From: a virus
Reading direction: 5' to 3' (one strand)
Virus genome (UHGV): UHGV-0382128
DNA length: 64,000 nucleotides
Positions 3,071 to 64,000 of this stretch are shown in pieces. The notes below the pieces were generated by a model. It saw only the letters and a list, made by a program, of their open reading frames with translations. It had not been told where the DNA came from and did not search any database. Made by a program: the position numbers and the translations under genes. The stretch's first letter is position 1, and the number at the start of each line of letters is the position of its first letter.

Positions 3071-3071
3071 G

Positions 3072-3617: not shown

Positions 3618-3631
3618 TTCCGATACCCGAT

Positions 3632-4147
3632 TTAGTCACGAGACTTTATTTTAAGGTACGCAACCGCAGCTCCCACGATTGCAATACCGGCGCCCCAACC
3701 TATCTTTTCTATTACACTCATATCGTCCCATCTTTTCTCTTCGTTACGTCGTTTGGCCTCGTCTGCCCGTTCTCTCCACATCGCTTCGCGTTCCAGACAG
3801 CTGGGATTTATTTCCTCTTCACAACGACGTTTCCGCTCTTCTTCCCTAACCAGTTCTTCTAAATAGAGCCTCGTTTCTTCCACAGCTTGTTCATAGACGT
3901 CTATGCGTTCGGGAAGAATTCTCCTGTGAGCGGCTTTGTTGCGAACGGAAGCAATCATGTGGAGTTTCCGTTCGTATTTTGGTTCGAGAAGATGAGCTAT
4001 GCTTTTGGTCTTCCCATGAAGCCCATGACCGGTACCGCCGAGTTTTTCCACAAGTTCTTCTACAGAAATTGCAAGATCGAGAATATATCCACGCATAATT
4101 GTTTCTCCGCTTAAACGCAGTCTTGGGAGACATAAGTCTGTTCCCAA
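3632..4147 (-). CDS. hypothetical protein with HEPN-like Rx4H motif and C-terminal transmembrane helix
   Basis: motif SVRNKAAHRR (R-x4-H); C-terminal IGWGAGIAIVGAAVAYL hydrophobic helix; true start may be an internal Met. Confidence 0.4.
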   Translation of the reverse strand: MGTDLCLPRLRLSGETIMRGYILDLAISVEELVEKLGGTGHGLHGKTKSIAHLLEPKYERKLHMIASVRNKAAHRRILPERIDVYEQAVEETRLYLEELVREEERKRRCEEEINPSCLEREAMWRERADEAKRRNEEKRWDDMSVIEKIGWGAGIAIVGAAVAYLKIKSRD

Positions 4148-8165: not shown

Positions 8166-8195
8166 ATCACCTTGTTACAAGGGGTTACTGGTTTG

Positions 8196-8744
8196 TTAAA
8201 TAGGGCGTTCTAAAAGGTAGTGTTCGATCAGTGTTTCCAACTCCCGGAATAAATGCGCTGTTTGGTTTACCAACGCTTTGTCTTCGTCGGACTCCGGTTT
8301 AAGGAACGTCGATTCATAAGGTTGAATTAGCGCGAGTAATTTACCCAATTTATAAGCGGCAACCTCAGGACTGGACGTCCCAAAATAAGTGTCTAGCCAT
8401 CGGTATTCTGCCAAGTCGTTTCGTTTATTTAAAGCATCGGGCAATGGTAGCCATTCAATTGAACTCCTGTTAATTGCTCGTTGGTATTCGTTAATGAGAA
8501 ATGCTAAACGTTGATAAAGAATGTCAATGTTATTAACGCGCAATTCGAGGAAACCGCGAAGGCTGGGGCGAAAGGGTTCTTCATTTATGTTTAAAGGCAA
8601 TGTAAGCAATTGTAAGCCGGTAAAGACTCTGACATAGGGGTTGTGGGTGTTCTTATGGAACTCCTGCTTCAAAGACTCTCTGAGGGCTTTTAAACGGTTA
8701 TTCTCTAACCGTTGTTTAAAACGAGTTATTATTCCTGTTAACAT
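8196..8744 (-). CDS. hypothetical protein (182 aa)
   Basis: ORF track; CTAAAGGAG-type SD. Confidence 0.55.
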   Translation of the reverse strand: MLTGIITRFKQRLENNRLKALRESLKQEFHKNTHNPYVRVFTGLQLLTLPLNINEEPFRPSLRGFLELRVNNIDILYQRLAFLINEYQRAINRSSIEWLPLPDALNKRNDLAEYRWLDTYFGTSSPEVAAYKLGKLLALIQPYESTFLKPESDEDKALVNQTAHLFRELETLIEHYLLERPI

Positions 8745-48053: not shown

Positions 48054-48063
48054 GGAGAATTTT

Positions 48064-51000
48064 TTGATGAAAGCGTATCCTTACGATCCTCGGGGGACGA
48101 AAACCGAGAATCACTTCTTAGAGGAGCGTATCATCGGGTCAGAAAACAACAACGATCGGGTGGTGATTTTAGACCATCGCCCGTTCTTTGAAGATTTAGT
48201 CGTCAGACAACCAGGTTCAACCACCCCACTGAGTCGTGGGGTGGACTACGAACTGCAATATCAGCTGACGGAACTGGATGACTCGGTAGCAGCCAACGTG
48301 TATTGTGGGGTACACCTTATCAACCCTTCCATCAAAGGCATCGTAACCTTTGAAGGACAAATGCTCGGCGGTACGTTCTACGACCCGTTTGTTGATATTC
48401 TCGATGAGCTGGTGAAATATTTGAATAACCCAGTCAGCGCTGACTGGCTGTTATTAGACGGTAGACCGTCGTTATATCCAGCGACGCCTGCGGCAACGTC
48501 TTGGGCGGATTTGCTAAACAAAAAATATTTAGCGTCGGCAGTCCACGATGTTGAATTGAAAACCGATGACGCTAACCAGTTAATTAAAGATAAATTAGCC
48601 GAAGTTAAAGCGTTAGTCGCCGCGCTGGGTAAAGAAATCGAGGCATTTAACTACCCGGCACACATCGCGGAAACCAACCCGCACCAAACTACTTCTGCAC
48701 AGATTAGCGCACATCCTGTTAACTTGAAAACACCCGACACCTTTATGGCGTACGGGTTAAAGTTGAAAGCACTGACGGATGAACTGAAAGCGTTTCGTTT
48801 ACCACAGTCAGTTATCGACACGTATATCTCTCACTGGATTTCTTCGGAAGTACGGGGTGTGTTTAACTGCACGGTGTCAGGAAACCGTGCACAGTTCCGC
48901 TCAAAAAACGGTGAGTCAGAAATCATTTTTGCGAATGATGGCTTTACGTTAAAATCCAACGGTTCTGTAGTGTTAGCGGTAGGGCATCTGGAAGGAACGG
49001 GTGCAGGACGTTACATTAACTGGCGTGCTGGTAAAAACACGTTACGCATCGAGTCAACGGGCGATGCTTTAGGGATGAACAAACTTACCCTAAACGGTAA
49101 CCCGTTACTGACCACCACAGCATTGATGGAATACCAACAGGACCCGGATGCTGGCGGGAGCGGTGGCGGTGACCCTGACGACTCAAAGGTGTACATCGAA
49201 GGCCGTAATGGGATTAGCTTCACCGGTAAAGGCTCTCGGACCGATCCTATCGTGGGTACTATCGAACCGACGAAAGCGACAACCACCGAAAAAGGTGTTG
49301 TTAAGCTTAAAACTGGTAAAGGTACAGAAATCGTTGGGGTTGCAGCAACTCCGGCTTCGTTAGCGCCATATGCGACCGACCTATCGGGGTATGTGGCTAA
49401 AACGACCATGATTAACGGTAAGCCGATGAATGACGGCTCCAGGACAATCACGAAAGCTGACCTGGGGTTAGGGCAAGCGGATAATACCGCAGATCTTGAC
49501 AAACCGTTGTCAACCAAGTTAACTGAGGCGGTTAGCGGTCTAGCAGATGTGGGCCATCATCACGATTGGTCGGAGTTAGGTATTTATAAAGCCTCTCAAT
49601 CTGTTTACGGTATCGGTCGTTATGCAACTAACCAGAACGGTTTGGTTGAAAACCGTGCAGTGGTACCGAACATCCTAAAAGAGCTTTCGGCACGTTTAAG
49701 TGTGGTCGCTGCGGCAATTGCAAATGCGAAAGAAGGAACAGTCACGGATTTCGCTGCTGTAAAAGGCGCAGACTGGCGATTTAATAGCCAGGGTACGGCA
49801 ATCTCCGTTCAGGATTTGAAATATTTCTATTTGCTGGACGGCACGAAAGGTGACAGCACCGTTACCGGTGCGATTGACCTGCAAACCACTCCGATGTTTA
49901 ACTGGTTCTCACCGAACAACCAACTTGAGCTGACTTGGCCTACGGGTAAGGTGAGTAAAGGTACCGGGATTAGTTGGGATGGAATTGTTGATCCCCCAAC
50001 AATGGGGTTTCAGTCAGTTCCGGTAGGTAAAAGCGCCACCCAGATGGGCGTTCAGTCCGTTGTATCGGTACTGGCTAAAACGCGCGTCAAAGCTCGTCAG
50101 AAAAGGCTGTTTGTTTATGCCGCTGGCGGTGGGACAATAACCGTTTATGTAAATGGTGTTGTAGCCGCTACTGGTGCGTCGCCATTGTTAATGAACTATG
50201 GAACGTCTCCAGATGTTGAAAACTACACAATTGCTGTTAAAGCAGAGTGTAGTGACACGGCTAAATCTGCAGCGGTACAGTTCGAAGTTTACGATGGTGA
50301 CTACCCCGTTTATTTCAGTGGTCCTGAAACGCGTGTAGATCTTCTCCAGGAGTTTGTCACAACGCATGTAGGTATTCGTCATTATTTGTACGTTAACATG
50401 CTCACAGGCTCTCTGTATTCGCGTGCTGAACCAGTTCAAGGATTTGAGGTCGATCCAGAACGCGGATATATCGGTTATGTTGATATCGTTCCTGGTCAGT
50501 CTTACGCGAATAAAACCGTGGGATTTGAAACCACGTTTGATTTCGGGAAAAGTGCGGAAGTTAGCGAGCATAATAGTATTCGTAAGGCACACGGTCTCAA
50601 CGCTGCGGACTGGTCACTGACGGATAACCCACGGTTGCCGTTATTAAACCGTGCTATTGCCGAACCAAGAGCGTGTATCTTTAGGAAACCGTTAGCAACC
50701 GCTACAGGGGATGTTTTCCATCTTGTCAGTCGTGGCCTTTATACCTACGCACACAACCAAAACGTGAAGTCGAGTCTTCAATACGTTGTGATACCTGAAG
50801 GTGCTACGCCGTATTGTTGGTTTACACCATTTAACCCGAAAGAAAACAACGCACCGACATTCGAAGGCTCGTTTGCGTTCGATGTTGACGATGTTGGTGG
50901 AACGCAAGCCCTTGCTGCTGCGCCGGATTTGGTTCTATGCACGTCAACGCAAGGTAGCAGCGTTAAACGTCGCTATCTACGCATTGACCTAACTACCAAA

Positions 51001-52248
51001 GCCTGTAGGCTGGGGATTGGTTCCCGTTCAGATTCTGCCGTTACAGATATTCCGTTAGTGATGGAGGAGTCTGGGGAAACGGCGGTGGTCGCAACGTTTA
51101 AGGATGTGTTGTTCAACGGCGAGGAAACCAACCCCGCGGCACTCGACTTGATAGGTTGGGGTGCCAGCCGAGATAAAATTTCTGCAAACCATGCACCTCG
51201 TGGCATGATTCGCTATCGTTACAACGTAAACACTCGGGTATTACGTTTAGCACTGTCGTTCTCACAGTTCGGAACGACAACAGTTAAACATCGACAGCTG
51301 GAGATTCAATTCCCGTTCGATTTAGTGGATTATTTCACTGGCGACGGTGTGGGATTGTCGTTTAAAGAACTGTCTGCGAAATGCCGTGTAACGATTAGTC
51401 ATGCACTGATTGATCCGGCTACGAGTAACGTCGACATTGATAAGTACCATTACTTACGTTCGTTGTTCGAATCGTATCTGGATTCGTCCGTTGGGTATTT
51501 GGCTGATACCAAAGACGTTGATTTTAGTCAGTCTGTGATTGACCCTGCGACTTACGAGGTTAGTCAAAAATACCGCGTTACAGAAAGCATCGCGCTGCCA
51601 ACCGGCCAGGGAAGTGTTGCTGTTTCCCATGACGGCCAGTTGCCTGCGCAGTTCTTTGACCGTAAGCTGTCTCGTGGTGCCTTGATGGCCAAGAAAGGTG
51701 AACTCAACACTTCCTGGAATAATGAGTGGAGCACGACTAAAGCTGCTGCGAGTCGTTATCGCCATAAACTCATTCTACGCTTTGCACAAGGTGCTGATAA
51801 ACAGCAGTATCGCGTTGCAAAAGTGGCCGGGACGGTGAAGTCTAACTGGCCGGGTAAAGTGATTATCGGTGATGCCGGGAAGGACCCGTATGTATCGGCT
51901 ATTGATAGCGTATCTTTTGCGCTTTCGACCGCCTCTGATACAGGTAAAGCGATTACTCTTACGCCAAAGGACTTACGTGTAGGTCAGGACATTTATATTG
52001 TCTTAGAACCACCCGGCAATAATCCAGAAGGTTATGAACTTAACTTCACTTGTTCGTTAGATGTCACTGACGAGAAAAGTGTCCGTCAAGATCAACTCAA
52101 TGCACAGAGTTTCGAACTCCGTAGCGGCGAAAGTCAGTTCTTAATGGAGAAACGCAACCCGTACCACATCACGAGTAAAGCGTGGAAGTGGATTCTGGCT
52201 GTACTGAAACGAGAACTTAACGGGAAGCAGTTAGGGGATCGTACTTAG
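48064..52248 (+). CDS. tail fibre protein 2 (1394 aa)
   Basis: TTTEKGVVKLKTGKGTEIVGVAATPASL resembles the T4 gp12/gp34-type fibre repeat; HHHD metal-site-like motif. Confidence 0.65.
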   Translation: MMKAYPYDPRGTKTENHFLEERIIGSENNNDRVVILDHRPFFEDLVVRQPGSTTPLSRGVDYELQYQLTELDDSVAANVYCGVHLINPSIKGIVTFEGQMLGGTFYDPFVDILDELVKYLNNPVSADWLLLDGRPSLYPATPAATSWADLLNKKYLASAVHDVELKTDDANQLIKDKLAEVKALVAALGKEIEAFNYPAHIAETNPHQTTSAQISAHPVNLKTPDTFMAYGLKLKALTDELKAFRLPQSVIDTYISHWISSEVRGVFNCTVSGNRAQFRSKNGESEIIFANDGFTLKSNGSVVLAVGHLEGTGAGRYINWRAGKNTLRIESTGDALGMNKLTLNGNPLLTTTALMEYQQDPDAGGSGGGDPDDSKVYIEGRNGISFTGKGSRTDPIVGTIEPTKATTTEKGVVKLKTGKGTEIVGVAATPASLAPYATDLSGYVAKTTMINGKPMNDGSRTITKADLGLGQADNTADLDKPLSTKLTEAVSGLADVGHHHDWSELGIYKASQSVYGIGRYATNQNGLVENRAVVPNILKELSARLSVVAAAIANAKEGTVTDFAAVKGADWRFNSQGTAISVQDLKYFYLLDGTKGDSTVTGAIDLQTTPMFNWFSPNNQLELTWPTGKVSKGTGISWDGIVDPPTMGFQSVPVGKSATQMGVQSVVSVLAKTRVKARQKRLFVYAAGGGTITVYVNGVVAATGASPLLMNYGTSPDVENYTIAVKAECSDTAKSAAVQFEVYDGDYPVYFSGPETRVDLLQEFVTTHVGIRHYLYVNMLTGSLYSRAEPVQGFEVDPERGYIGYVDIVPGQSYANKTVGFETTFDFGKSAEVSEHNSIRKAHGLNAADWSLTDNPRLPLLNRAIAEPRACIFRKPLATATGDVFHLVSRGLYTYAHNQNVKSSLQYVVIPEGATPYCWFTPFNPKENNAPTFEGSFAFDVDDVGGTQALAAAPDLVLCTSTQGSSVKRRYLRIDLTTKACRLGIGSRSDSAVTDIPLVMEESGETAVVATFKDVLFNGEETNPAALDLIGWGASRDKISANHAPRGMIRYRYNVNTRVLRLALSFSQFGTTTVKHRQLEIQFPFDLVDYFTGDGVGLSFKELSAKCRVTISHALIDPATSNVDIDKYHYLRSLFESYLDSSVGYLADTKDVDFSQSVIDPATYEVSQKYRVTESIALPTGQGSVAVSHDGQLPAQFFDRKLSRGALMAKKGELNTSWNNEWSTTKAAASRYRHKLILRFAQGADKQQYRVAKVAGTVKSNWPGKVIIGDAGKDPYVSAIDSVSFALSTASDTGKAITLTPKDLRVGQDIYIVLEPPGNNPEGYELNFTCSLDVTDEKSVRQDQLNAQSFELRSGESQFLMEKRNPYHITSKAWKWILAVLKRELNGKQLGDRT

Positions 52249-52286
52249 GACAGACTGCCTGCGGGCAGTTGTGTGTCCGTAGGTAA

Positions 52287-52309
52287 CCCCTCCCTGTAAT
52301 GGGGAGGGG
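52287..52309 (+). terminator. rho-independent terminator inside the tail-fibre operon
   Basis: hairpin cccctccc-tgtaat-ggggagggg followed by tatccattttattt. Confidence 0.55.
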
Positions 52310-52342
52310 TATCCATTTTATTTAAAAGTAGGAGTCTTTACG

Positions 52343-55300
52343 ATGCCGAGAGAAGACGCGGCGCAGTTTAACGGTACGCTAAGCACAACGACGTACCCTA
52401 ACCGATTTAACGTGGTCATTCCGCCTGAAGGACCTTTTTATCGTATCGGATTAAAACTCACAGTAGCCGACGATACCGCGCCTAACGGACGTCGTACTCT
52501 GATTGAGGGGTTGGACTACTATTTAGGCTATTACTTTAAAGAACTCGCAGAAGCTGAACAAGATCAGATTTATGGCGGGTTTATGTTGCTTACTGCAACA
52601 GAAATCGAATATGAGATTTTAGGGGTAGCACGTCAATACCGTGTACCGCAATCTGAAATCGGTAAGTTCTTAGTTCGTACTGACCTGAAAGACCCACGTA
52701 ACGTGGACTGGTCGGAGTTAATGGCGTACGCGCCGGTTATTCAACCAATCGACCCCCCTGCTAACTTAGAAGAAGCTATTCTGAGGGACGAGGTCGTTAA
52801 AGCGTTGAACGATATCCGCAAGAAAATCATTCAGCGTTCAACAGAGTTAGATGCGGCCTTCACCGAAGTCACTAACCTGATTTACGAGAACGGTAAAAAG
52901 ATTTTCGATGAAGAACTATACCAACACCACCTTAATCCTAACGCTCACCAGTATACGACCAATGACGTTGGGGCCCTTCCGGTTTTAGGACGTGCTGTTG
53001 ACGCTACAAAAGCGTTTGGGTTGACAATTGACCAACTGGCTACGCTGATGGGTTCGGCGGGCATTGAGCAATCAGACGTTGAACAGCTAATGGGTGAAGC
53101 CCTCGGTACCGTTTACGGTCGTTGGGGCACCACGAACGGTAACGAACTAACGTTTAAAACACCGGGTGGACACATCATCAGCATCCGTGGTGATAAGTGG
53201 TTAATTACCTCCCCGCAACCGTTAGTGATTAAAGCAGACCAAGACAACAACGAATCCGGTTTGGCGGTTGAGTTTAGTGCGGGACTGAATACGCTTTGGG
53301 TACACTCTGGGTCAGAACAGGATGTATTAGCACCGGTCTATAACTCTGTGTATCTCGTTACACCAGAAATGGTGAACATGTACCTGACGTCTGTAACGTT
53401 ACTTGAAGCGAATGCCTATTTCAAACCGTCAGACACCGTAAAACCGTACGGTACAGCGAAGCAGTCTAACCCACTAACGTTGAACGCGAATATTCCCACA
53501 GCAACCGAGTCGGTTTATGGGGTGTTTTCGATTACGAATATCGCAACCTCTGTAGCGCTAGGCACTGCTATTTCCCAAAAGGCTGTGACCGAGTTAAAAA
53601 ACCGGTTGGACTTGTACGTTGACGACGACTACACGGTTAACGGTAAAGGGTTTGTTAAGACAGGCGACAACATGGTGTTAACCTTAACGAAGGCCGATTT
53701 CGGTATCGATAAGATGAATAACACCGCACCCATCGCTAAACCGGTAACAAAAGCATTAGCGAACGTGCTGAAAAATAAAAGTTTGAAGGTTCACACGCAC
53801 ACTACCGCTGATTTGGATAATGTCCCGATTGGTAGCGCAACAGTGGACGGTATCTTACAGCTGTGGGATGCGATTGATACCACGAATGATAAAGCCGTCA
53901 CATCACGCCAAGGGTGGCTGTTCGCAAAAGAGATTAAGAAGGTCTCTGATAAACTGAATACCCTCTTGCCCGCATGGACAACGGCCGGGAGCAAATATAC
54001 CAACAATTCGATATTGCCGATCTTGTCGATGGGTAATTACGAAGGTTATGGTAAAAACATGGATGCGCTCCAGATGGTTATAGGGGTACAACAAGGTAAG
54101 CTTTATGCTTTAATTAGCTCTAAATCCGCCCTTCCGGGAACTGAGGGTATTTATTACGCTGTTGCTGGGTTAAAAAACGACAAAAGTCTCGGTGAAATTT
54201 ACAAAACAACTTTCCGTTATAAGCCGAAAGGGTTAGAGACGAATTATCCGGGGGTGGAACTAAAAGAAATTACCGTTACTGGTACCGAAGCATTTATAGC
54301 GAAGGGCAGCGACGATAATTATTATTTAGTTAAACTGAACGGTTCAATGGATTACACCAAACATACCGATGTCAGGTTGGTAACTTTCTCAGAATTTGTT
54401 TCAGAAACAACATGGGAATTTGTGCCGAATATGTTCATGGATCGTGTGGTCATAGCCGATAACGGCGTCTATGTTTTGCGTACGATGCTAATGGCCGATC
54501 TGAAAAACAATACTCTGGTGGACTACATTAAGGATACCCCACAACCCATGTTCCGTGTTGGCTTATTGCGGCTTAATAAAACCGATCGGTTTGAACAGGT
54601 TGATTTAAGGTCTACACGAAAAATCGGTAAGTGTGCCGATTTGGTTGAACCTGGCGCGTTCGATGTAGATAATCCGAATACGAAGCGTCTTGCCTACTTC
54701 ACTGCGGAAGGCAAAGCGTTGTGGACAGTGAACTTACAATTAACTAGAGGGTCGTCAAGATGGATAACGCCCGTTGTTAAGGACGGTCACTTGTTAACCG
54801 TCGGCGTGTCTGGTGTTTGTCTTGGTTTTTCTTCAACGAAAGGTACCACATTCGGGCCATGGAATGGTGCTTATCGTCTTGACCTATTAACCGGGGAGGT
54901 TGGGTTAGAGACAACTAACGTCTTCCCAATTAAAATCGATACTACAGGTTGTTACTTAAAAGACGGAACAAAAATAGAGCTGAAATGGAAATGGGCTACT
55001 CGAAGTTCTGGCTATATGGCCGACAATAGAATCTGTGTCGGTGATATGGTTTATTCTTGCTGCTGTTCGACAGAAAAACAACTTGCACCATCTCTCCATT
55101 ACCAGAAACTCCCAGAAGGAGTTAGTTATCTGGACTATGTTAAGTTGAGTGTGGGGTATGAGGGGCAATCTACGTTTGAAAATCGGATAAACCCTGTGGT
55201 GGGTTCGGTGTGGAAACCGTCTATGACCTTCCCATTGTTCTTCCCAGGAACAAACAAAGTATGGCTTAAACATCAAAAATCGGCTTATTTCATTGAAGCC

Positions 55301-57529
55301 GAATATGATAAAAATACGACCTATGGTTATCCTGGATACGGTGGTTTTGGACCAACATCCCGCCGTGTTGAAAAAACAGCGAACGAATACGGCATATTGA
55401 CAAATATACCGCTGGTTGTTACGCCAGAAATACCGAACGGCCTACTAGAAGGGGCTTATTTTATCGGTGCCGAAAGTAAACCGTGTACAGTTGTTTACGG
55501 TACCACTACGGTGGGTAGTGATCGGTTGTCTATCGATGCGGCAGAATGGGCGAAGCTGACTAATATTGTTCAGTCCAGCCAGTTCTCCGGGGCATCTAAC
55601 GGCAACGCCTATGAGCGGATTAGCGTAGCTAAGACCAAAAAGAACAACTACAGTTTGTCCTTTTGGGTGCTTGGTCAAACGATGTCTGGTGGTCCGCTTT
55701 GTATCGCGATAGTGAGTCTTATCTATAAAGACACTGACGGGGTAAATAAGTTTGCTTTTTACTTCTTTCAGGTAAAACCGACTATAACCAACGGGGTCAT
55801 AAGGTTCGTTAGTTCGGAAGCGAGATTGATGACGTTTAGGGAAAAAGTGGCCAGTAACGCCATTAATCTCTCACCCACAGCTTTTAATGGTGAACTTAAA
55901 CAACGCTCCGGTCAAGTTTTCCTTTATTCGCAAGACGGACAAAAGTTCAGATTCTCAATACATAACCTGGTTGGTGGGAATCTTGTAGGATCAGAGATTT
56001 CTTTTGCTTTTGGGATAAACTTGACTAAAAAAGGCGAATGGTTTACCGGCGAAATTCATCGGGCGTGGGGCTATACGTATACGCTGAATAATACATCTGA
56101 AGTCTATATACCCGATCTCTCGGGCATCGCGCTATTGACTTGTAACTCGGAAGATTTAAACGAGTTGTATCTCGGTGGCGAACAGTATAGAATCTCTGAT
56201 TTGTTTAACAAAAAATATACTGTTATCGATAAGATTATTATTGGCGGCGTACAAACACAGAGCGGTTGGAATTTCTATCTGACGGAGGAAACCGAGTTAA
56301 GTTTTGGAAATAAAAGATATACCGTTCCAAGATGGTCCGTTGATTTAAGCGATGAATTCCCGACTAATCATGCTAACCAGACGTTCTACGTTTATGCTGA
56401 AGTGGTCGGTTCTACTGCCCAATACCGCATCGGTTTAGAGCAGTTAGCTGATACCTCGTCGAGACTGTTTGTTGGGACTGTAACCACTGATTCGAACCGT
56501 ATTACGGATATCAGTATCGATAAAGTAAAACGGTTAGGTCGCGTAAAAGAGCTGGAAAATCATGCCTCGATTGTTGATCAACACGATGTGGCGCAGGCAT
56601 TCGACAGGAAAACTGGCCCACTATTAACGCTGGTTAATAAACCCGTTAAAGTCGTTACAGCATCTGCGAGCAAGGGTGCTGGGTATGTCGATGGTCAGAA
56701 ATGGAATACGTTGTCCGGGATTACAACACGTTCCAGGTTGCCGGTACAGGAAACCTATTCAGGTTATAAAAGTATCAGCAGGGTGGCGTATGAGAACTGC
56801 GCTGACCAGTTCTGGCAGAAAGCGGTTGCTGCGAACGTTGCAGCGGCTACTGCTTCTGAGAACAAACAAGCAGCAACCGCGAACATGAAGTGGTTGGGCG
56901 CGTATACGAAACCGACTGTCGGTGCGAATGTGTGTCTGGTATTGAGTCTACGTGTTAAAGTGCCTGGTAATCCCGGCACCGCTAATCGTAAACTAAAAAT
57001 CAGATTCGCGGCTCCGACAGGTATAACTGATGTTAGTTACGGGCTAAATCAGTCTGGCGGTTCGATGGCTGAACAGACAGTAACGCTAACTGCTAACAGT
57101 TATCTGGAAAAAGAACATGCCGGATTTAAGCCAGCCGAAGAAGTCCGTCTTCATGCTACGTTTTACATTCCAACAAATGAATACGATAGTTACCGTACGA
57201 AGTTCGGTGCTGTTCAGCTGATTGACGTTGAGACGAACACTGTCATTAAACAGACAGATATCGACACACCGTTTATCGTGTACACCGCCACAGAGCAAGC
57301 GGCACAATCTGGTTTGGTCTATAAAGCGGTTAAGAGTCAGTTTCGTCAACTCCCGGCTCAACCTGTCGTCATTGTAACTGATGGACAGACAGGGACTACA
57401 CCACCGGTGAAAACCGCGTATTCTGACGGCACGTTAACGGTCTATGTGGCAACCACGTACGATGCGGTTAACCCAGCACAAACTCGCGATATCGATAAAC
57501 TCCAGTTCAATCTTATGTTTACATCTTAA
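52343..57529 (+). CDS. tail fibre protein 3 (1728 aa)
   Basis: TESVYGVFSITNIATSVALGTAISQKAVTEL fibre repeat; shared N-terminal domain (PEGPFY...GLDYYL). Confidence 0.65.
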   Translation: MPREDAAQFNGTLSTTTYPNRFNVVIPPEGPFYRIGLKLTVADDTAPNGRRTLIEGLDYYLGYYFKELAEAEQDQIYGGFMLLTATEIEYEILGVARQYRVPQSEIGKFLVRTDLKDPRNVDWSELMAYAPVIQPIDPPANLEEAILRDEVVKALNDIRKKIIQRSTELDAAFTEVTNLIYENGKKIFDEELYQHHLNPNAHQYTTNDVGALPVLGRAVDATKAFGLTIDQLATLMGSAGIEQSDVEQLMGEALGTVYGRWGTTNGNELTFKTPGGHIISIRGDKWLITSPQPLVIKADQDNNESGLAVEFSAGLNTLWVHSGSEQDVLAPVYNSVYLVTPEMVNMYLTSVTLLEANAYFKPSDTVKPYGTAKQSNPLTLNANIPTATESVYGVFSITNIATSVALGTAISQKAVTELKNRLDLYVDDDYTVNGKGFVKTGDNMVLTLTKADFGIDKMNNTAPIAKPVTKALANVLKNKSLKVHTHTTADLDNVPIGSATVDGILQLWDAIDTTNDKAVTSRQGWLFAKEIKKVSDKLNTLLPAWTTAGSKYTNNSILPILSMGNYEGYGKNMDALQMVIGVQQGKLYALISSKSALPGTEGIYYAVAGLKNDKSLGEIYKTTFRYKPKGLETNYPGVELKEITVTGTEAFIAKGSDDNYYLVKLNGSMDYTKHTDVRLVTFSEFVSETTWEFVPNMFMDRVVIADNGVYVLRTMLMADLKNNTLVDYIKDTPQPMFRVGLLRLNKTDRFEQVDLRSTRKIGKCADLVEPGAFDVDNPNTKRLAYFTAEGKALWTVNLQLTRGSSRWITPVVKDGHLLTVGVSGVCLGFSSTKGTTFGPWNGAYRLDLLTGEVGLETTNVFPIKIDTTGCYLKDGTKIELKWKWATRSSGYMADNRICVGDMVYSCCCSTEKQLAPSLHYQKLPEGVSYLDYVKLSVGYEGQSTFENRINPVVGSVWKPSMTFPLFFPGTNKVWLKHQKSAYFIEAEYDKNTTYGYPGYGGFGPTSRRVEKTANEYGILTNIPLVVTPEIPNGLLEGAYFIGAESKPCTVVYGTTTVGSDRLSIDAAEWAKLTNIVQSSQFSGASNGNAYERISVAKTKKNNYSLSFWVLGQTMSGGPLCIAIVSLIYKDTDGVNKFAFYFFQVKPTITNGVIRFVSSEARLMTFREKVASNAINLSPTAFNGELKQRSGQVFLYSQDGQKFRFSIHNLVGGNLVGSEISFAFGINLTKKGEWFTGEIHRAWGYTYTLNNTSEVYIPDLSGIALLTCNSEDLNELYLGGEQYRISDLFNKKYTVIDKIIIGGVQTQSGWNFYLTEETELSFGNKRYTVPRWSVDLSDEFPTNHANQTFYVYAEVVGSTAQYRIGLEQLADTSSRLFVGTVTTDSNRITDISIDKVKRLGRVKELENHASIVDQHDVAQAFDRKTGPLLTLVNKPVKVVTASASKGAGYVDGQKWNTLSGITTRSRLPVQETYSGYKSISRVAYENCADQFWQKAVAANVAAATASENKQAATANMKWLGAYTKPTVGANVCLVLSLRVKVPGNPGTANRKLKIRFAAPTGITDVSYGLNQSGGSMAEQTVTLTANSYLEKEHAGFKPAEEVRLHATFYIPTNEYDSYRTKFGAVQLIDVETNTVIKQTDIDTPFIVYTATEQAAQSGLVYKAVKSQFRQLPAQPVVIVTDGQTGTTPPVKTAYSDGTLTVYVATTYDAVNPAQTRDIDKLQFNLMFTS

Positions 57530-57569
57530 CGCCACGAGACAAGGACGTCTCGGATTAAGGAGAGTGGCC

Positions 57570-58769
57570 ATGGCCTCCATTGTATACCAATACCCTTTAG
57601 ATTTAACGGGAACCCTAACCTCTAACGCCGTGGAGCGTCAGATTACGTTAGGTACAGGCAAAGTTAACCGTGCGTTTGCTTTCCCTGATGGTCCGTTTTA
57701 TGCCGATACGTTCCGCTTGCGGGTTGCCAATCGACCTGGAGCGACATATGAGCGTGGAACGGACTATGAACTGATTTTTGCACACCCGGCTTATGAGAAA
57801 TTGACGAAGAACCGGGAAGTGGTAATGGCGGTTGTTGTAACGAACACCGCGATTCCGACCGATATCACGGTATCGGCGCAAGTAGTTGGTGGTCCTCAGT
57901 CTGCAAATGTGACCGCGATTGAGCAAGCGATTGCCGAGTTGAAACTCGATAATCGAACTGTTGGCTTTAAAGACTTGCGAAATGTGCCGGACACGTTTCC
58001 TTCAGCACCAACGTATAAAGACGTCGGTGATATTTACGGCTTCGAATATATCATTACAGTGCTCGCTGGCATTAAAGATGCGATAACTGCGGGTGATGCT
58101 GTACAGCTTGAGAACATCAAAGCGATTCTCGATAGCCTGAAAAACGATTTCCTGGACGCGCTGAACGCGCACATTAACTCTACTGGTAATGTCCACCATC
58201 TGGATATTCATCAGGTTAACGGGTTAACGGAAACGGAGATCCGCGCTTTAATTCGCAGTGTTCAGACAGCCATTGATGCAACGATTGCCGATATCAATGC
58301 ATTGAAGAAAGCGGACGAAGCGTTAGGAAAACGTATTGATGCTGTTGTCAAATCTCTGGAAGCGTGGAACGACCAACTTAACGTCGTTGCACAAAACTAT
58401 CAGAAAATGGCACTGGCGCTGGCGAACCTAAACTCGTTAGTGTTACAGTTACAGAAAAATATCAACGATCTGAACACCAAACTCAACCAAGCGATTCAGC
58501 GCATTGCTGCGTTAGAACAGCGGGGTAATGAGACCGATCAGAAAATTGATAATCTGCAACAAAACTTGGATGCGCTTAAACAACAGGTTGCGAATAACAC
58601 GAACGCAATCAGTCAGGCGAATCAGAACCTACAAAACCATATTGCGGCAGATAACCCACACACAGGTTATCTCCACAAGAAATACGGTGGTGTGGTTCAG
58701 GCTTCAGTACACGTTAACGCTAACCTGACGTCCCGTGATGACGTTCAGGCAGAAGCAGGTACGAAATAA
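57570..58769 (+). CDS. fibre-like protein with shared N-terminal domain and C-terminal coiled-coil (400 aa)
   Basis: start moved to MASIVYQYPL (TAAGGAGAG SD); PDGPFY...GTDYEL N-domain; long heptad-repeat segment. Confidence 0.5.
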   Translation: MASIVYQYPLDLTGTLTSNAVERQITLGTGKVNRAFAFPDGPFYADTFRLRVANRPGATYERGTDYELIFAHPAYEKLTKNREVVMAVVVTNTAIPTDITVSAQVVGGPQSANVTAIEQAIAELKLDNRTVGFKDLRNVPDTFPSAPTYKDVGDIYGFEYIITVLAGIKDAITAGDAVQLENIKAILDSLKNDFLDALNAHINSTGNVHHLDIHQVNGLTETEIRALIRSVQTAIDATIADINALKKADEALGKRIDAVVKSLEAWNDQLNVVAQNYQKMALALANLNSLVLQLQKNINDLNTKLNQAIQRIAALEQRGNETDQKIDNLQQNLDALKQQVANNTNAISQANQNLQNHIAADNPHTGYLHKKYGGVVQASVHVNANLTSRDDVQAEAGTK

Positions 58770-58779
58770 TTTAATTACA

Positions 58780-58810
58780 GGAGGAACTATGTTTATGGAC
58801 GTAGTCCTCC
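58780..58810 (+). terminator. rho-independent terminator after the fibre operon
   Basis: hairpin ggaggaact..agtcctcc followed by attcttttttatttt. Confidence 0.55.
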
Positions 58811-58833
58811 ATTCTTTTTTATTTTAAGGATAC

Positions 58834-59229
58834 GTGATGGCGATCAGTGTTAAAAATGTGCGTGACCGAATCACCAACGTAGAGAACCAAATGGCAACTG
58901 GCCCACGTGTTGATCCGCAAGTTGCGTCGAAAGCACATAATGCTGCTGATTCATTTTCAGGTTGGACACCCGGTCGATTAGATTGTGGAGGTAGCTGTAG
59001 CTGGACGTGCTCAAACGGTTGTACGCATGGTTGTACGAGTTGTTCAGGTACATGTACATCGGTGTGCGTAGGAAGCTGTTCCTCTGCGTGTGGTAATCAA
59101 TGCAGTGGTTGTAGCGGAACGTGTTCTGGTGGTTGTTCAGGATGTAGCGGGACTTGTAGTGGGGGATGTGCTGGACGTTGTTCCTCGGGGTGTAGCGGTT
59201 CTTGTGCAGGTGGTTGTTCTAACCCATAA
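58834..59229 (+). CDS. Cys/Gly/Ser-rich protein 1 with leader-like N-terminus (131 aa); candidate radical-SAM substrate
   Basis: N-terminus MAISVKNVRDRI..., then about 21 Cys at roughly 4-residue periodicity starting DCGGSCSWTCS. Confidence 0.6.
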   Translation: MMAISVKNVRDRITNVENQMATGPRVDPQVASKAHNAADSFSGWTPGRLDCGGSCSWTCSNGCTHGCTSCSGTCTSVCVGSCSSACGNQCSGCSGTCSGGCSGCSGTCSGGCAGRCSSGCSGSCAGGCSNP

Positions 59230-59248
59230 AAAATAAGGATCAATTCGA

Positions 59249-60163
59249 ATGGAAGAACTTACTAGACCGACGGTATCCGATAAGCTCTACAGTAATCCGA
59301 GAACGTTAAACGTGATTACAACATCCAAATGTAATCTGGACTGTAGCTTCTGCGGCGGAGCCTATTACATGCATAGAGAGGATACAACCGCAGAAGTACA
59401 AAAGGAAAGTATTATCGAGGCGCTGGAAAATAACCCGACTATCACAAATATCCAATGGTCAGGGGGCGAACCATTACTTGCCACGCGTAAAATTGATACC
59501 CTTATAGAAGAGATAAGGGAGAAGTATCCTCGTTGCGAACATTACCTGTATACCAATGGTTTAAAAATGCGTAAATCGCATCTACCGTTGTTAAAGGGTT
59601 TTGATAGTATCTTTTTTAGCATGGATGGATTCAAAGAATCAGAGCGTCCGTTCATGCGGATTATCGAAGAAAAACAATACGAGGTTTTGGAGACAATTTA
59701 CGAATTGAAAAATATTCGTACTTGGGCGGTTTTGACGCGCGAGCGTATTGGGGATAAACGTTGGTACGAAGATATAATTGCGTTACATAACCACATTTAC
59801 CATTATGGTTTTTGTGAGATGTCGCTGGTTTTGGACAAAAACATGCCAAAACCGTTATCTCCCGATCACGTTATGAACTTTATTTACGGGTATTTTAGAA
59901 TTCAGGAGAATATAGAAAGACTGAATTCGTCCAATCGAAGCGAATGTGCGTTTACGCTAAATGCGTTATTTGATGAACCCTGTAACACATGTAGTCGTTG
60001 TTTTCGCATTGAGTCTGACGGTGCCCAGAACCAAGTAAAGAACGTTGAAATCGTAACGCAACACGGCTGTAGTGACTTGGCCAGAAAGGTTGGATTAGAT
60101 GCTTACGACTATATACGTCGTGTGGTAGGGGCTAAGAATAGAGTCTCAGAAAAACTACGATAA
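59249..60163 (+). CDS. radical SAM enzyme 1 (304 aa)
   Basis: CNLDCSFCGG (CxxxCxxC), GGEPLL, C-terminal CNTCSRC and GC auxiliary-cluster-like cysteines. Confidence 0.75.
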   Translation: MEELTRPTVSDKLYSNPRTLNVITTSKCNLDCSFCGGAYYMHREDTTAEVQKESIIEALENNPTITNIQWSGGEPLLATRKIDTLIEEIREKYPRCEHYLYTNGLKMRKSHLPLLKGFDSIFFSMDGFKESERPFMRIIEEKQYEVLETIYELKNIRTWAVLTRERIGDKRWYEDIIALHNHIYHYGFCEMSLVLDKNMPKPLSPDHVMNFIYGYFRIQENIERLNSSNRSECAFTLNALFDEPCNTCSRCFRIESDGAQNQVKNVEIVTQHGCSDLARKVGLDAYDYIRRVVGAKNRVSEKLR

Positions 60164-60221
60164 TTTTACAGAAAGTGAATTATAATGTGTCCTAGGGGGC
60201 ACTAAACCAGTAGGTATTAAA

Positions 60222-60620
60222 ATGGCGATTGGTTTATCTTCTTTAAAGGCCCGGCTAGATAACATAGACTCTACTGCATTAAAAAATACAGGTGCGGTGC
60301 AGAACTATATTCGTGGTAAAGCCACTAATAATAGCGATCTGTTTGGAGGACAGCCGAGAAATCACTATGACTGCGGAGGTAGCTGTAGCTGGACGTGCTC
60401 AAGTTGTTCGGGCGGCTGTACCGGCAACGCCTCCGGCGGCTGCGGTTCTTCCTGTTCAGCGAACTGTGTTTCAGGATGTAGTACAGGTTGCACAGGTTGT
60501 AGCAGTACCTGCTCAGGAGGGTGCACAGGTAATTGCTCGGGCGGTTGTTCAAGTAGTTGCACCGGAACATGTTCAGGTTCATGTCGAGGCGGATGTCAGC
60601 AATCGTGTACTGGAAGATAA
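60222..60620 (+). CDS. Cys/Gly/Ser-rich protein 2 with leader-like N-terminus (132 aa)
   Basis: N-terminus MAIGLSSLKARL...; core begins YDCGGSCSWTCSS with about 22 Cys. Confidence 0.6.
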   Translation: MAIGLSSLKARLDNIDSTALKNTGAVQNYIRGKATNNSDLFGGQPRNHYDCGGSCSWTCSSCSGGCTGNASGGCGSSCSANCVSGCSTGCTGCSSTCSGGCTGNCSGGCSSSCTGTCSGSCRGGCQQSCTGR

Positions 60621-60623
60621 GAA

Positions 60624-61290
60624 ATGATAAGTCTTAAAAACATACGCGACAGATTAGTGACGGCGGAGGGATATATCACCACCGCTAATGCAAACAACTA
60701 TATTGCAAACCAAGGAACGGTTTCCTCAACCAACAATCTCGCAGGATTACCTTTAAGTCATTATAATTGTAATGGCGGATGTAGTTGGTCGTGCAGCGGT
60801 AGCTGTAGTAAGGGGGCGGGGGGGGGTAAGTAAGCCCTCTAGCGGTGGTTCTACGCCAACCCCTTCAAGACCAACCTACGACAACAAAGCCGTTGTTTAT
60901 GTTGAGTCTAAGCTACACGCTAAAGATACTGTTCGTATCAATTTCTCTACTGGGGCTGTCTTTATTCAATGCGTAACGTCAACCGGTAGAGAGAAACCGA
61001 TAAGGGTCTTTAAATCGTTACTGTCTGGAAAGTCCTACGCCTACCCTCAAGTTGCAATGGGTAATGGTATCACTGTTAATTTTACAGACGCGGCTAGTTT
61101 TAAGATAGACTCTATCGGTAATGCATCTTCTGCTTCTATCTCATTAGAAGTATTAAGTAATTCCGGCGGAAGCATGGCGATTACGCAGCAACCGAGTAAA
61201 TCAAACGGCTTTACTGCAGAATTTGAAGTTACCGGCAGGCAATGGCGTGGCGGGTTCTATACCTTGAACGTCAGATTGACCGTAAAATAA
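60624..61290 (+). pseudogene. Cys-rich protein 3 interrupted at a G9 tract; both frames (60624..60833 and 60772..61290) look coding and a 1-nt change would fuse leader plus short Cys core to a 150-aa C-terminal domain
   Basis: frame A ends ...CNGGCSWSCSGSCSKGAGGGK; frame B continues through the same G-run as RGRGGVSKPSSGGSTPTPSRPTYDNK... (Ser/Pro/Thr linker then beta-rich domain). Confidence 0.4.
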
Positions 61291-61302
61291 TTGGAGTAAT
61301 CA

Positions 61303-62190
61303 ATGAAAAACGATTTGCATTTAGCCTATAAAACAATTTTCAACCACCCACTTCATATTTCTTCCCCCGATTCAATACGCGCTCATTTGGAAGATAAAGT
61401 TCGTTTGTTAACCCAGTTACCTGGCGAATGGCCCAAAGTGCGTGGTCGTTTTTTTACCGATCGCAATAACTATTCAGTAGAAAACACTTTTAAAATACGC
61501 GATCTGACAGCAGAAAGCGTAGTGGTGTTTACCGGTGATTCAGATTTACGCGGTAAATTGGTTGACGGTAAATATTTCTTTAGTGACGGTATTCTGAATA
61601 ATTCTGTAGATTTGGAATTGTTCTTTACGCCATTTAAAGAGTTGAATGCGAAGCCTGTAGCACGACGTTGGTGGTCTCCAGACTATCTTGGTTCATTCCC
61701 GTACTTTTATGCCCTGGTTCCTGTAGAAACAAAAAACTATGTTGATACTGAACCGTATATTGAAATAGAAGGTTACGAGGAACTTGGCATCAACTGTTTA
61801 GCAGATCTGATGGCGTACAGTTACAAATTTATGTGGGATCGTGAACGTTCAGTATGGGTTGCCCTTACAGATGAACATGAAATCACAAAACGTATTCGTA
61901 AACCATGGATGCAGCATTTAATTCAAACACGTATTGGTGAACATCCGTCATCGGAAGCAGATTTAGCGAAACTTGTTAGTTTCTTAATGACGAAAGTCAC
62001 GTTAACTGATGAAGAAAAAGCGGCAGTGTCGGCGGTATTGGAACGTAACGTAACGTTAGCGGATCTAGAACGTTTAAACGTGCGTTATAAAGACCTTAAT
62101 CGTATTATTGAGGCTTACAATTCACCGTTTGTATTAAAACCTGGAGTTAACGCTTACGACGATCCTTTGTTATCCATTGGCTATATTTAA
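61303..62190 (+). CDS. hypothetical protein (295 aa) inside the radical-SAM cluster
   Basis: ORF track; GGAG SD. Confidence 0.55.
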   Translation: MKNDLHLAYKTIFNHPLHISSPDSIRAHLEDKVRLLTQLPGEWPKVRGRFFTDRNNYSVENTFKIRDLTAESVVVFTGDSDLRGKLVDGKYFFSDGILNNSVDLELFFTPFKELNAKPVARRWWSPDYLGSFPYFYALVPVETKNYVDTEPYIEIEGYEELGINCLADLMAYSYKFMWDRERSVWVALTDEHEITKRIRKPWMQHLIQTRIGEHPSSEADLAKLVSFLMTKVTLTDEEKAAVSAVLERNVTLADLERLNVRYKDLNRIIEAYNSPFVLKPGVNAYDDPLLSIGYI

Positions 62191-62196
62191 AAATAG

Positions 62197-63135
62197 ATGG
62201 ACTCACCTGCAATGACAACCGACGTAGAGCCAAGGTTATCGAATCGTTTATACAATAAACCCACCGTATTGTCCGTAGTTGCTACATCCAAATGTAATCT
62301 GGACTGTAGCTTCTGCGGCGGAGCCTATTACATGCATCGTGAAGATTCTCCGCGAGAGTTTCAACGTGAACGAATTTTGAAAGCGTTGGCGTCTAACCCA
62401 ACCATTACTGAAATTCAGTGGACTGGCGGTGAACCGCTACTGGCAACTCGAAAGATTGAGGCGTTTGTCGACGAATTAAAAACGATCCGTCCTGAACTCA
62501 AACACCAGATGTTCACGAACGGTTTAAAAATGCGTAAATCGCATCTACCGTTGTTAAAACAATTCGATGGTATATATGTTAGCATCGATGGGTTTAATCT
62601 TTCTGAACGGCCTTTTAAGCGCTTTATTGATGATAATTGTCATGAAGCGTTAGAAGTAATTTACAGCTTGAATAATGTTAACACCTGGGCTGTTGTTACG
62701 AGGGAGAATTTATCCAATAAAAGATGGCATGAAGATATCATTCAATTACATACTGCTATCTATCATTACGGTTTTCGTTCCATGTCCTTATTACTAGATA
62801 AAAACATGCCAAAACCGTTATCTCCCGATCACGTTATGAACTTTATTTACGGGTATTTTAGAATTCAGGAGAATATAGAAAGATTAAACGTTCTAAATTC
62901 TAGAGACTGCGGTTTTATTGTAAACAGATTCTTCGATCATGCTTGTAATGTCTGTAGCGAAAGTCTCAGGATAGACGCGGACGGGGAAGAAAACCAACTT
63001 AAAAATGTACCAATAACTACAAAAGCAGGGTGTAACCAACTAGCCTCCTCAATAGGTGTAGAAGCTTACGAGTACATTCGTCGTGTAGTGATGGCAGAGC
63101 GTAATAGAGGGGCGGAAAATGAGTCAAGAAAATAG
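62197..63135 (+). CDS. radical SAM enzyme 2 (312 aa), paralogue of 59249..60163
   Basis: CNLDCSFCGG motif; several blocks of perfect nucleotide identity with radical SAM enzyme 1. Confidence 0.75.
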   Translation: MDSPAMTTDVEPRLSNRLYNKPTVLSVVATSKCNLDCSFCGGAYYMHREDSPREFQRERILKALASNPTITEIQWTGGEPLLATRKIEAFVDELKTIRPELKHQMFTNGLKMRKSHLPLLKQFDGIYVSIDGFNLSERPFKRFIDDNCHEALEVIYSLNNVNTWAVVTRENLSNKRWHEDIIQLHTAIYHYGFRSMSLLLDKNMPKPLSPDHVMNFIYGYFRIQENIERLNVLNSRDCGFIVNRFFDHACNVCSESLRIDADGEENQLKNVPITTKAGCNQLASSIGVEAYEYIRRVVMAERNRGAENESRK

Positions 63136-64000
63136 TTATCCTAAACAACTGACTTATCAAATTGTTACAAATTTATCGTGTAACTTGGACTGTGAGTATT
63201 GTTACGAACGTAAGTATCCCCGTAATAACAAAGCGGCGGATATTGTTGATTTTCTACACGCTTGTTTTGAACGAGATAAAGATCTGACAAACATCGAGGT
63301 CGTTATCGATATCATCGGTGGTGAGCCGTTTATGCAGCCTAAACTATTAAAGGCGGCATTTGAAACCGCAGAAGAGTTATGCGAAAAACATAATCGGCCG
63401 TTTATGTTTAGCATCTCTACTAACGGAACGTTGTTAGATAGACCTTTGAATAGAGAAATTATTGAACGTTGGAAAGACAGGCTTTCTATCGGCGTGTCTA
63501 TTGATGGATTGCCCGAATCGCACGATAAGTACCGGATTTTTACAACAACTCGTGAAGGATCTTACGAGGCCGCTGTGCGGGGCTATAACTACTTAAAAGA
63601 AGTCGGTATTGCAGAACTTGGTGTAAAAGCGACCTTTACGTTGGAAACGTTACCGTTCTATGCTGCTGGAATGAAATCATTAATTGATATTACTGGCGGC
63701 GGAACTATTTCTGGCAACGTAACCTTCGAAGACATTATGCCACGGAGCATGGCTACTTCAATCGCATTGCAGATGATGGACGTGGTAGATTATTGGGTTG
63801 AGAAGGGCTTACACACCAACCCACGTAACACTTTGTCGCACATCATTCCAGACGGGTTAGATTTTGATACTATCTGGGAACCAAACTGGCGTGATCAGTT
63901 ATTGTATAACGATACTGTACGTTTGAATCCAGAACGTTTACGCCCGTTCTGCGGTACGTTAACACACATGACATGCTTAGGATTTGATCGTAAGATCTTC
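63119..64000 (+). CDS. radical SAM enzyme 3 (partial, runs off the window end), SPASM/anSME-like
   Basis: manual translation MSQENSYPKQLTYQIVTNLSCNLDCEYCYE..GGEPFMQP..ISTNGTLL; no stop before position 64000; overlaps the stop of the upstream gene. Confidence 0.7.
   Translation, partial: MSQENSYPKQLTYQIVTNLSCNLDCEYCYERKYPRNNKAADIVDFLHACFERDKDLTNIEVVIDIIGGEPFMQPKLLKAAFETAEELCEKHNRPFMFSISTNGTLLDRPLNREIIERWKDRLSIGVSIDGLPESHDKYRIFTTTREGSYEAAVRGYNYLKEVGIAELGVKATFTLETLPFYAAGMKSLIDITGGGTISGNVTFEDIMPRSMATSIALQMMDVVDYWVEKGLHTNPRNTLSHIIPDGLDFDTIWEPNWRDQLLYNDTVRLNPERLRPFCGTLTHMTCLGFDRKIF

Follow-up and report, generated by a model that had tools for sequence, protein, structure and literature searches.

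A conserved module of cysteine-ladder proteins and radical-SAM enzymes following the tail-fibre genes of SPN3US-like jumbo phages, with a proposed role in fibre maturation

Proteins composed of tandem Cys-X-X-X (CXXX) repeats, encoded next to a radical S-adenosylmethionine (rSAM) enzyme of the SPASM type, are already known as a curated system that is defined bioinformatically (TIGR04114 and its Pfam counterpart PF27846 for the repeat proteins, TIGR04115 for the enzymes). A second system to be compared is that of the ranthipeptide and SCIFF maturases, such as CteB and PapB, the maturase of freyrasin, which combine an rSAM core with SPASM auxiliary clusters, and whose substrates are Cys-rich with a short and regular spacing, the PapA substrate having CX3D repeats. 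Here we describe a locus that resembles both, in a 64,000-nucleotide stretch of the viral genome UHGV-0382128 (the window, to which all coordinates refer), whose plus strand carries, between 52343 and 64000, fibre genes followed by a module encoding three Cys-rich proteins, named here CysA, CysB and CysC, and three rSAM enzymes, two of them short (S1 and S2) and one long. An earlier note, made from the sequence alone, had singled out these six genes, and all are present on the plus strand, along with two further genes that it did not describe, an open reading frame (ORF) at 60826-61290 and a gene for a 295-aa protein at 61303-62190. Our preferred interpretation, in which we have slightly better than even confidence, is of a tail-fibre maturation module, its rSAM enzymes stapling structural parts of the fibre within the cytoplasm, probably via thioethers. 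The impression that this is not a described phage module agrees with the literature searched, in which no description of it was found.

CysA (130 aa, 21 Cys; 58837-59229, plus strand, as are all the features below) consists of approximately 50 N-terminal residues, a junction, and an 80-residue CXXX ladder, and CysB (132 aa, 20 Cys; 60222-60620) has the same architecture, as judged by translation, family matches and orthologues, so that the two ladders of about 80 residues and about 21 Cys noted earlier are both borne out. The start of CysA had been placed at 58834, which is an in-frame GTG one codon upstream of the actual ATG at 58837, while the gene itself is confirmed. CysC (69 aa, 4 Cys; 60624-60833) possesses the same N-terminal segment and junction, is devoid of the long ladder, and terminates in KGAGGGK. 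The junction reads DCGGSCSWTCS in both CysA and CysB versus NCNGGCSWSCS in CysC, whose junction segment is NCNGGCSWSCSGSCS. The N-terminal motif IS(V/L)KN(V/I)RDR(I/L), originally assigned to all three proteins, is strict in CysA and CysC only, CysB being divergent (IGLSSLKARL), but all three match the same family of 'unknown function', phrog_6085, from residue 1-2 (E 3e-40 for CysA, 3e-39 for CysB and 8e-25 for CysC, the latter covering profile positions 2-66). The RiPP-type (ribosomally made peptide with modifications added after translation) character of the targets, also proposed earlier, is in keeping with matches to TIGR04114, the CXXX-repeat rSAM target family of NCBIfam, whose curated cut-off of 20 bits is reached by CysA (20.1) and CysB (22.3), with CysC below it (13.7); weaker matches of CysA and CysB are to the related families TIGR04117 and TIGR04118. 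PF27846 (tSAM_targ_Cxxx_rpt) is found in the precomputed annotations of distant homologues.

The Cys content of CysA (16%) and CysB (15%) compares to a median of 1.2% for the 77 ORFs of at least 100 aa in the window, the next highest being 8%. The cysteines are nearly always 4 residues apart, now and then 3 or 8, and the ladder is composed of 25% Cys, 28% Ser and 25% Gly, with neither Asp nor Glu, the X positions being limited to Ser, Gly, Thr, Ala and Asn across orthologues. In comparisons with orthologues, nonsynonymous divergence (dN) is 0.22-0.66, synonymous divergence (dS) is saturated, and every Cys column is kept, indicative of purifying selection; as dN is far below the saturated dS and the Cys columns are conserved, we take these frames to be real genes.

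The short enzymes S1 (304 aa; 59249-60163; PF04055, Fer4_12, phrog_1802) and S2 (312 aa; 62197-63135; PF04055, also recognized by alignment; orthologue of SPN3US gp164) share the motifs CNLDCSFCGG (CX3CX2C), GGEP and TNG, and the C-terminal cysteines observed earlier resolve in the alignment into three conserved ones (CX2C...C). Each Cys-rich gene was thought to sit beside an rSAM gene, and this is true of CysA, while CysB and CysC do not directly abut one. S1, a separate, older paralogue confined to the sub-lineage of the window, is 61% identical to S2 and 95% identical to S1 of the related genome L022, and is absent from SPN3US, L019, L021 and L024-L031. S2 shares 64-80% identity with the short enzyme of relatives, which have only one. 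NCBIfam matches of S1 and S2 are generic only (AF0577, MoaA, tungsten-cofactor maturase, PapB). The long enzyme, an orthologue of SPN3US gp163, is represented by its first 294 codons (63119-64000), recognized by translation and TIGR04115, and is cut by the end of the window. Its motifs CNLDCEYC, GGEPF and TNGTLL are in place, as described earlier, but its SPASM region lies beyond base 64000, and SPASM cysteines are seen in full-length relatives (440-442 aa) only, for example in L016, whose flanking DNA is approximately 95% identical to the window. Its best NCBIfam family is TIGR04115, the maturase of CXXX-repeat targets, followed by the PapB ranthipeptide maturase, with scores for the former of 100.1 bits for the window fragment, 118.9 for the full-length enzyme of L016, 125.6 for that of Salmonella phage JN03 and 134.9 for that of L008, and the closest solved structure is CteB (PDB 5WGG), the SCIFF thioether maturase (E 1.6e-12). 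As this alignment begins at CteB residue 105, the N-terminal RiPP recognition element (RRE) must be absent from the long enzyme. Short and long enzymes alike fall within phrog_1802. Roles of the short enzymes as QueE, NrdG or MoaA, the first two of which had been deemed less likely from the start, are rejected because the scores are far below the cut-offs (38.6 bits versus 260 for QueE, 36 versus 131 for NrdG2, 30 versus 126 for NrdG, and MoaA likewise far under) and because the short enzymes share phrog_1802 with the long one; Pfam, NCBIfam and PHROG searches of the other module genes gave no match to a deazapurine-synthesis or NrdD family.

The 295-aa protein, an orthologue of SPN3US gp165 (phrog_8030, E 2e-138), is present in the module even in the distant contigs L008 and L009, and its AlphaFold2 (AF2) model has a mean predicted local distance difference test (pLDDT) value of 86. 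Two genes are always found 3' of the long enzyme, beyond the end of the window (L016, 4617-5839; L001, 13148-14439), one encoding a phrog_7988 protein (about 190 aa), the other a DUF4376-containing protein (about 224 aa). The former overlaps the 3' end of the long-enzyme gene by approximately 37 nt and accompanies the module even in L008. Pfam, NCBIfam, PHROG and fold searches revealed no peptidase, transporter or RRE among the conserved module genes.

Compared with the CXXX-repeat system, the locus has in common the tandem repeats adjoining an rSAM/SPASM enzyme, and a gut-phage relative of the module holds a bona fide TIGR04115 enzyme (see below). Unlike that system, it adds one or two short rSAM paralogues as well as two orphan proteins (phrog_8030 and phrog_7988), no TIGR04116-like partner was detected in the module, and its targets have a conserved N-terminal segment and a C-x-G-x-C-S-W-x-C-S junction and are found in phage tail-fibre clusters. 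With the ranthipeptide and SCIFF maturases it shares the rSAM core and, in the full-length relatives, the SPASM auxiliary clusters, the long enzyme aligning over nearly the full length of PapB, as well as a Cys-rich, regularly spaced substrate. Unlike CteB and PapB, however, the phage enzyme scores below the PapB cut-off, besides having no RRE, and the phage substrate is a 130-aa protein of about 20 repeats, free of Asp and Glu, near which neither a leader protease nor an exporter was found.

The module is conserved throughout the SPN3US-like jumbo phages examined, always following the baseplate-fibre genes. A comparison of synteny, which the earlier note had put forward as a check, covered seven reference phages from five genera (Seoulvirus, Machinavirus, Erskinevirus, Wellingtonvirus and Derbicusvirus, including Cronobacter phage CR5) and 11 IMG/VR genomes, and the order fibre, structural protein, CysA, CysB, (CysC), phrog_8030, short rSAM, long rSAM is kept. 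Orthologues of CysA and CysB, with 20-23 Cys, are encoded in every genus examined, CysC usually being present as well, and the phage records with a tblastn match number 60 for CysA and 64 for the full-length long enzyme. In the records of SPN3US (L007/L015; NC_027402 / JN641803, about 143.2-144.3 kb) and JN03 (L001, 9067-10096), CysA and CysC are unannotated. The coding sequence SPN3US_0166 / ACQ60_gp100 is an off-frame reading of CysB with an Ala/Val/Arg-rich translation, and SPN3US gp164, the short rSAM, is annotated about 40 codons short, its JN03 counterpart having the full 304 codons. With CysA and CysC unannotated and CysB mis-framed in SPN3US, the published proteomes could presumably not have found any of the three proteins.

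Beyond this clade, distant homologues of CysA were traced to their contigs, and in six of six independent contexts examined an rSAM gene is located no more than three genes away from the CXXX protein. One example is a T7-like podophage, with the gene order connector, capsid, tube, nozzle, T7 tail-fibre N-terminal domain, collagen-like fibre fragment, a 213-aa CXXX protein and a 270-aa rSAM enzyme. The N-terminus of this CXXX protein matches tail-fibre PHROGs, and the segment homologous to the supposed leader is internal (residues 96-145). Another example is the gut phages L013 and L014, in which a CXXX protein and a 447-aa rSAM enzyme are encoded near Phage_fiber_2 and a protein with a glycine-rich domain; the L013 enzyme is the bona fide member of TIGR04115 (378.6 bits versus 350), the sole one passing among those scored. 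A third example is the gut phage MT835573, in which genes for a CXXX protein, a protein of 202 aa and a SPASM enzyme are flanked on one side by that for a fibre protein of 369 aa and on the other by those for collagen-like fibre proteins. The jumbo-like contigs L008 and L009 encode the five-family module in its entirety (two or three copies of phrog_6085, then phrog_8030, short rSAM, long rSAM and phrog_7988), and these contigs also encode (2651-3835, 7600-7821) an RlmN/Cfr-like rSAM methyltransferase, an Acb2/Tad1-hairpin (anti-CBASS/Thoeris-type) protein and a GroEL-like chaperonin. L010 encodes a 430-aa rSAM enzyme and a CXXX protein among non-structural genes. Its rSAM and CXXX genes (6693-8600) contain in-frame stops under table 11, and the gene translation differs from the database protein, suggesting a stop-codon-recoded phage. 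With a nearby rSAM gene in all six contexts, and with a curated family pairing in existence, the link between rSAM enzymes and CXXX proteins is robust, the direct action of one on the other being what we infer from it.

A profile search of 1.84 billion representatives returned 778 families at E of 0.001 or less, and 86 distant homologues were defined as the profile matches that include the N-terminal segment or the junction, 77 of which match phrog_6085. In the listed top 25 of co-occurring PHROGs, all the named ones are tail fibre, tail collar fibre, tail, minor tail or virion structural proteins, except for one 'lipase', and the Pfam domains co-occurring in CXXX proteins are discoidin (F5/8 type C), GDSL esterase, Hint/intein-type and T7 tail-fibre N-terminal domains. 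Several long proteins have more domains downstream of the CXXX unit. Proteins P0069-P0074, P0078 and P0112, of 1500-1800 aa, each contain 9-12 separate blocks matching the ladder. A tblastn search of GenBank phages with distant CXXX proteins yielded nothing beyond N-terminal matches of crAss-like type and a single gut phage without annotation. One candidate, P0002, combining a CysA-like N-terminus with a solute-binding protein, was judged to come from a chimeric 1.5-kb contig and was set aside.

As to the setting in the window itself, the only nucleotide match among GenBank phages is to a radical-SAM gene of JN03 (74.7% identity), a member of Seoulvirus related to SPN3US, and from this match the phage is taken for a relative, so far undescribed, of SPN3US, a jumbo phage of the phiKZ-like type, a query with a single protein returning the same clade only. 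Among the close relatives are IMG/VR genomes about 225 kb long. Assemblies of Salmonella enterica Enteritidis isolates contain, possibly as a carrier state or as contamination, contigs of 114-133 kb that belong to a close relative (L033/L034; SRR1968191; GCA_008107045.1), and the presence of relatives in such assemblies suggests Salmonella as the host. Upstream of the module, 43731-58769 encode consecutive giants of 1440, 1394 and 1728 aa and a protein of about 400 aa, all with a phrog_2163 N-terminal domain, which, by these matches, are a paralogous family of fibre/baseplate virion structural proteins resembling phiKZ gp131. The 1728-aa protein (52343-57529; phrog_7449 over its full length), last of the three giant paralogues (43731-57529), is a baseplate-periphery/fibre protein orthologous to SPN3US gp168. 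The latter is a tail protein similar to phiKZ gp131, which is located at the baseplate periphery and fibres, and gp168 is the only one of these SPN3US genes treated in that study (PMC5105663). The protein of about 400 aa (57564-58769; phrog_2163, E 1e-103), an orthologue of gp167, has a coiled-coil C-terminal half, is labelled 'virion structural protein 20' in the JN03 and SPN3US records, and gave only coiled-coil noise in a Pfam search. Between these genes and CysA, at about 58780-58825, RNA folding predicts a terminator-like hairpin followed by a U-run, recognized earlier and supported here (dG -19.4 kcal/mol, z -4.48, with 0 of 200 shuffles folding as well). The module follows the gp168 and gp167 orthologues, tail-fibre contexts recur in three other lineages, and the named co-occurring PHROGs are nearly all those of tails or tail fibres.

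In our proposal, CysA, CysB and CysC would be small structural proteins associated with the fibres, each having an N-terminal segment of about 50 residues and the C-x-G-x-C-S-W-x-C-S junction, CysA and CysB adding a ladder of about 20 Cys-Ser/Thr-Gly-x repeats. They would be made late in infection, along with the fibre genes, in a reducing cytoplasm where disulfides cannot form, and, as the most economical mechanism, the phage rSAM enzymes would staple the ladder covalently, the long SPASM enzyme most likely making Cys-S-to-carbon thioethers, by analogy with CteB and PapB. As the ladder is without an acidic residue, Ser, Thr, Gly or Ala would need to serve as the acceptor. The short enzymes, with their 3-Cys auxiliary motif, may form further links, of a second type or as a second set, S1 being possibly dedicated to CysA, and the 295-aa protein and the downstream phrog_7988 protein may serve as accessory factors. 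The product would be a rigid, reduction-resistant stalk or tip attached to the baseplate fibre network.

The arrangement of a leader-like segment, a repeat core and an SPASM rSAM enzyme is also that of RiPP systems, and NCBIfam refers to related families as 'rSAM-modified Cys-rich RiPP', so that the N-terminal 50 residues could be a true leader, removed after modification of the core to release a free peptide that would not belong to the virion and would target the host or competitors, whether as a toxin, a signal, a metal chelator or an anti-defence factor. The hairpin that parts the cluster from the fibre genes would fit such a role, as would the L008-L010 modules, which have no identifiable fibre genes next to them. 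We nevertheless consider a released peptide unlikely: an RRE-recognized leader with a peptidase and/or an exporter, characteristic of RiPP clusters, was not found in the module, an 80-residue core is large for a RiPP, CysC seems to carry a C-terminal domain extension, and four unrelated phage lineages keep a location next to fibre genes. The repeated placement among tail-fibre genes, the domain fusions, in which tail and tail-fibre proteins contain or are joined to the homologous unit of leader, junction and CXXX ladder, and the lack of a protease, exporter or RRE in the module instead speak for a cross-linked part of the virion or fibre, rather than a free peptide, with the CXXX unit a structural fibre module. 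The presence of the 'leader' inside tail-fibre proteins elsewhere, along with the same missing functions, indicates that it is probably not a cleaved one. Alternatively, with 25% Cys at regular spacing, the ladders could chelate metals, and, as rSAM enzymes require [4Fe-4S] clusters and the short ones match only generic families such as MoaA and AF0577, the Cys proteins could be metal- or Fe-S-binding, metallothionein-like proteins, or cluster scaffolds or donors for the three enzymes, whose true substrate would be something else, e.g., the fibre proteins, a cofactor or a nucleotide. This we regard as highly improbable, as the CXXX protein is the target in the curated TIGR04114/TIGR04115 pairing, CXXX domains within large tail proteins are not expected of a cluster donor, the invariant Trp-containing junction and the restricted X positions suggest a defined fold or substrate, and the QueE, NrdG and MoaA scores are as low as given above.

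A further feature is found at the end of CysC, where a G9 homopolymer (60818-60826), the only G/C run of at least 8 in the window, is a candidate site of frameshifting or slippage. The 3' end of the gene reads AGT AAG GGG GCG GGG GGG GGT AAG TAA, and in the window and in seven other assemblies (L016, L017, L018, L032, L033, L034 and L036) frame 0 stops and the +1 frame continues, in the window through 154 codons (60826-61290) of a domain, here termed X, recognized by the open frame and by homologues. The tract is G9 in L017, L032 and L036, G10 with a 32-nt insertion in L016, and GCA followed by G11 in L033 and L034, L018 being a short contig that begins at the tract, with the G10 junction of L016; in each case TAAGTRAG follows, and, in assemblies from different projects, the 0/+1 relation is held despite the differences in length, via compensating changes. 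In homologues of X (P0065-P0067), which are as little as 60% identical, conservation begins precisely at the tract, and a different, weakly related domain, Y, is found in L016-L018 at the same junction and in the same frame. The tract is interrupted where X has decayed (L019, L021, L024 and L025), and the downstream domain is missing in L022, L023 and SPN3US. X has no Pfam, PHROG or phage tblastn match and is predicted, with low confidence, to be all-beta (AF2 pLDDT 49). A conserved tract followed by an ORF that is in another frame and has no conserved start of its own suggests programmed +1 (or -2) frameshifting or transcriptional slippage, yielding both CysC and a CysC-X fusion, and it is probably as this fusion that X is expressed. 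CysC would then be an adaptor, to which the shift at the terminal poly-G appends an exchangeable beta-rich domain. It is also conceivable that X is an ordinary overlapping gene, as an ATG at 60772, inside CysC, opens a 172-aa ORF, and gene callers predict proteins of 172-173 aa in relatives, or that the poly-G is a phase-variation switch or a recurrent assembly error, G homopolymers being both mutable and error-prone. These possibilities seem less likely: the ATG is replaced by ACG in L036 and has no Shine-Dalgarno sequence upstream, conservation of X does not extend ahead of the tract, an error would have to reproduce the same frame relation in eight assemblies with tracts of 9, 10 and 11, and neither the loss of the tract only alongside decay of X nor the use of the same junction and frame by the unlike domain Y would be expected.

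Several points weigh against the proposed fibre maturation. The modules of L008/L009 and of L010 are not beside recognizable fibre genes. The long enzyme of the window and its relatives, at 100-135 bits, miss the curated whole-protein cut-off of TIGR04115, which is 350 bits, and the ladder has no Asp, the acceptor used by PapB. To our knowledge, the chemistry of CXXX-repeat systems has never been determined, their family being defined by bioinformatics only. CysA, CysB and CysC, whose presence in virions is a proposal, had no entries among the SPN3US gene models that served for mass spectrometry, and the putative frameshift is read from assembled DNA. The 295-aa protein offers no functional clue, a fold search having matched nothing, including no PqqD-like fold.

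Functional parallels to the proposed product exist in phages. S16/T-even gp38 and Pam3 gp24 are likewise small fibre-tip proteins encoded in tail-fibre clusters, with a helical N-terminal attachment domain and a low-complexity lattice of small residues, and in the cyanophage Pam3 fibres are fixed to the baseplate by covalent Cys chemistry (PMC9942802). Those lattices, however, are of the polyglycine-II type, which no enzyme cross-links, and in Pam3 the disulfides arise spontaneously, whereas the phage ladder has a period of 4, invariant Cys and dedicated rSAM enzymes, so that the likeness drawn here is one of function. As to the CysC-X junction, it is comparable to other phage structural proteins extended by frameshifting, in that a short major product and a C-terminally extended minor form, with a domain predicted to be beta-rich, would share a conserved slip site. 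Such proteins include lambda G/GT, those made by the +1 shifts of Listeria phage PSA, and those to which Ig-like domains are appended. Unlike in these, the CysC site is G9-G11 followed by TAAGTRAG, with no known heptanucleotide, the shift would be +1 or -2, and slippage could be transcriptional.

Overall, while the pairing of CXXX repeats with rSAM/SPASM enzymes is not new, its conservation as a module across an entire clade of jumbo phages, one of them a genetic model, its recurrent embedding among tail-fibre genes of unrelated phages and fusion to tail proteins, and the extra short rSAM paralogues, orphan partners and poly-G-linked extension appear to be undescribed in the literature searched. 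The finding provides a testable function for two 'radical SAM superfamily' genes and for unannotated or mis-framed genes in SPN3US and more than 60 sequenced relatives, as well as a rationale for stapled, reduction-proof extracellular fibres that are assembled in a reducing cytoplasm. A broader and more tentative proposition, to which we give somewhat less than even credence, is that many phages build receptor-binding fibre parts from an rSAM-cross-linked cysteine ladder, the smallest paralogue here displaying exchangeable binding domains via a poly-G shift. If true, this would be the first case of rSAM (RiPP-type) chemistry maturing a virion structural protein, and it would join such chemistry to phage receptor-binding machinery, two fields so far apart. 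Many bacterial 'CXXX-repeat RiPP' clusters may then be prophage tail-fibre modules, and the curated families would merit re-reading, while a poly-G-controlled, cassette-like extension of fibres may bear on host range and on phage engineering.

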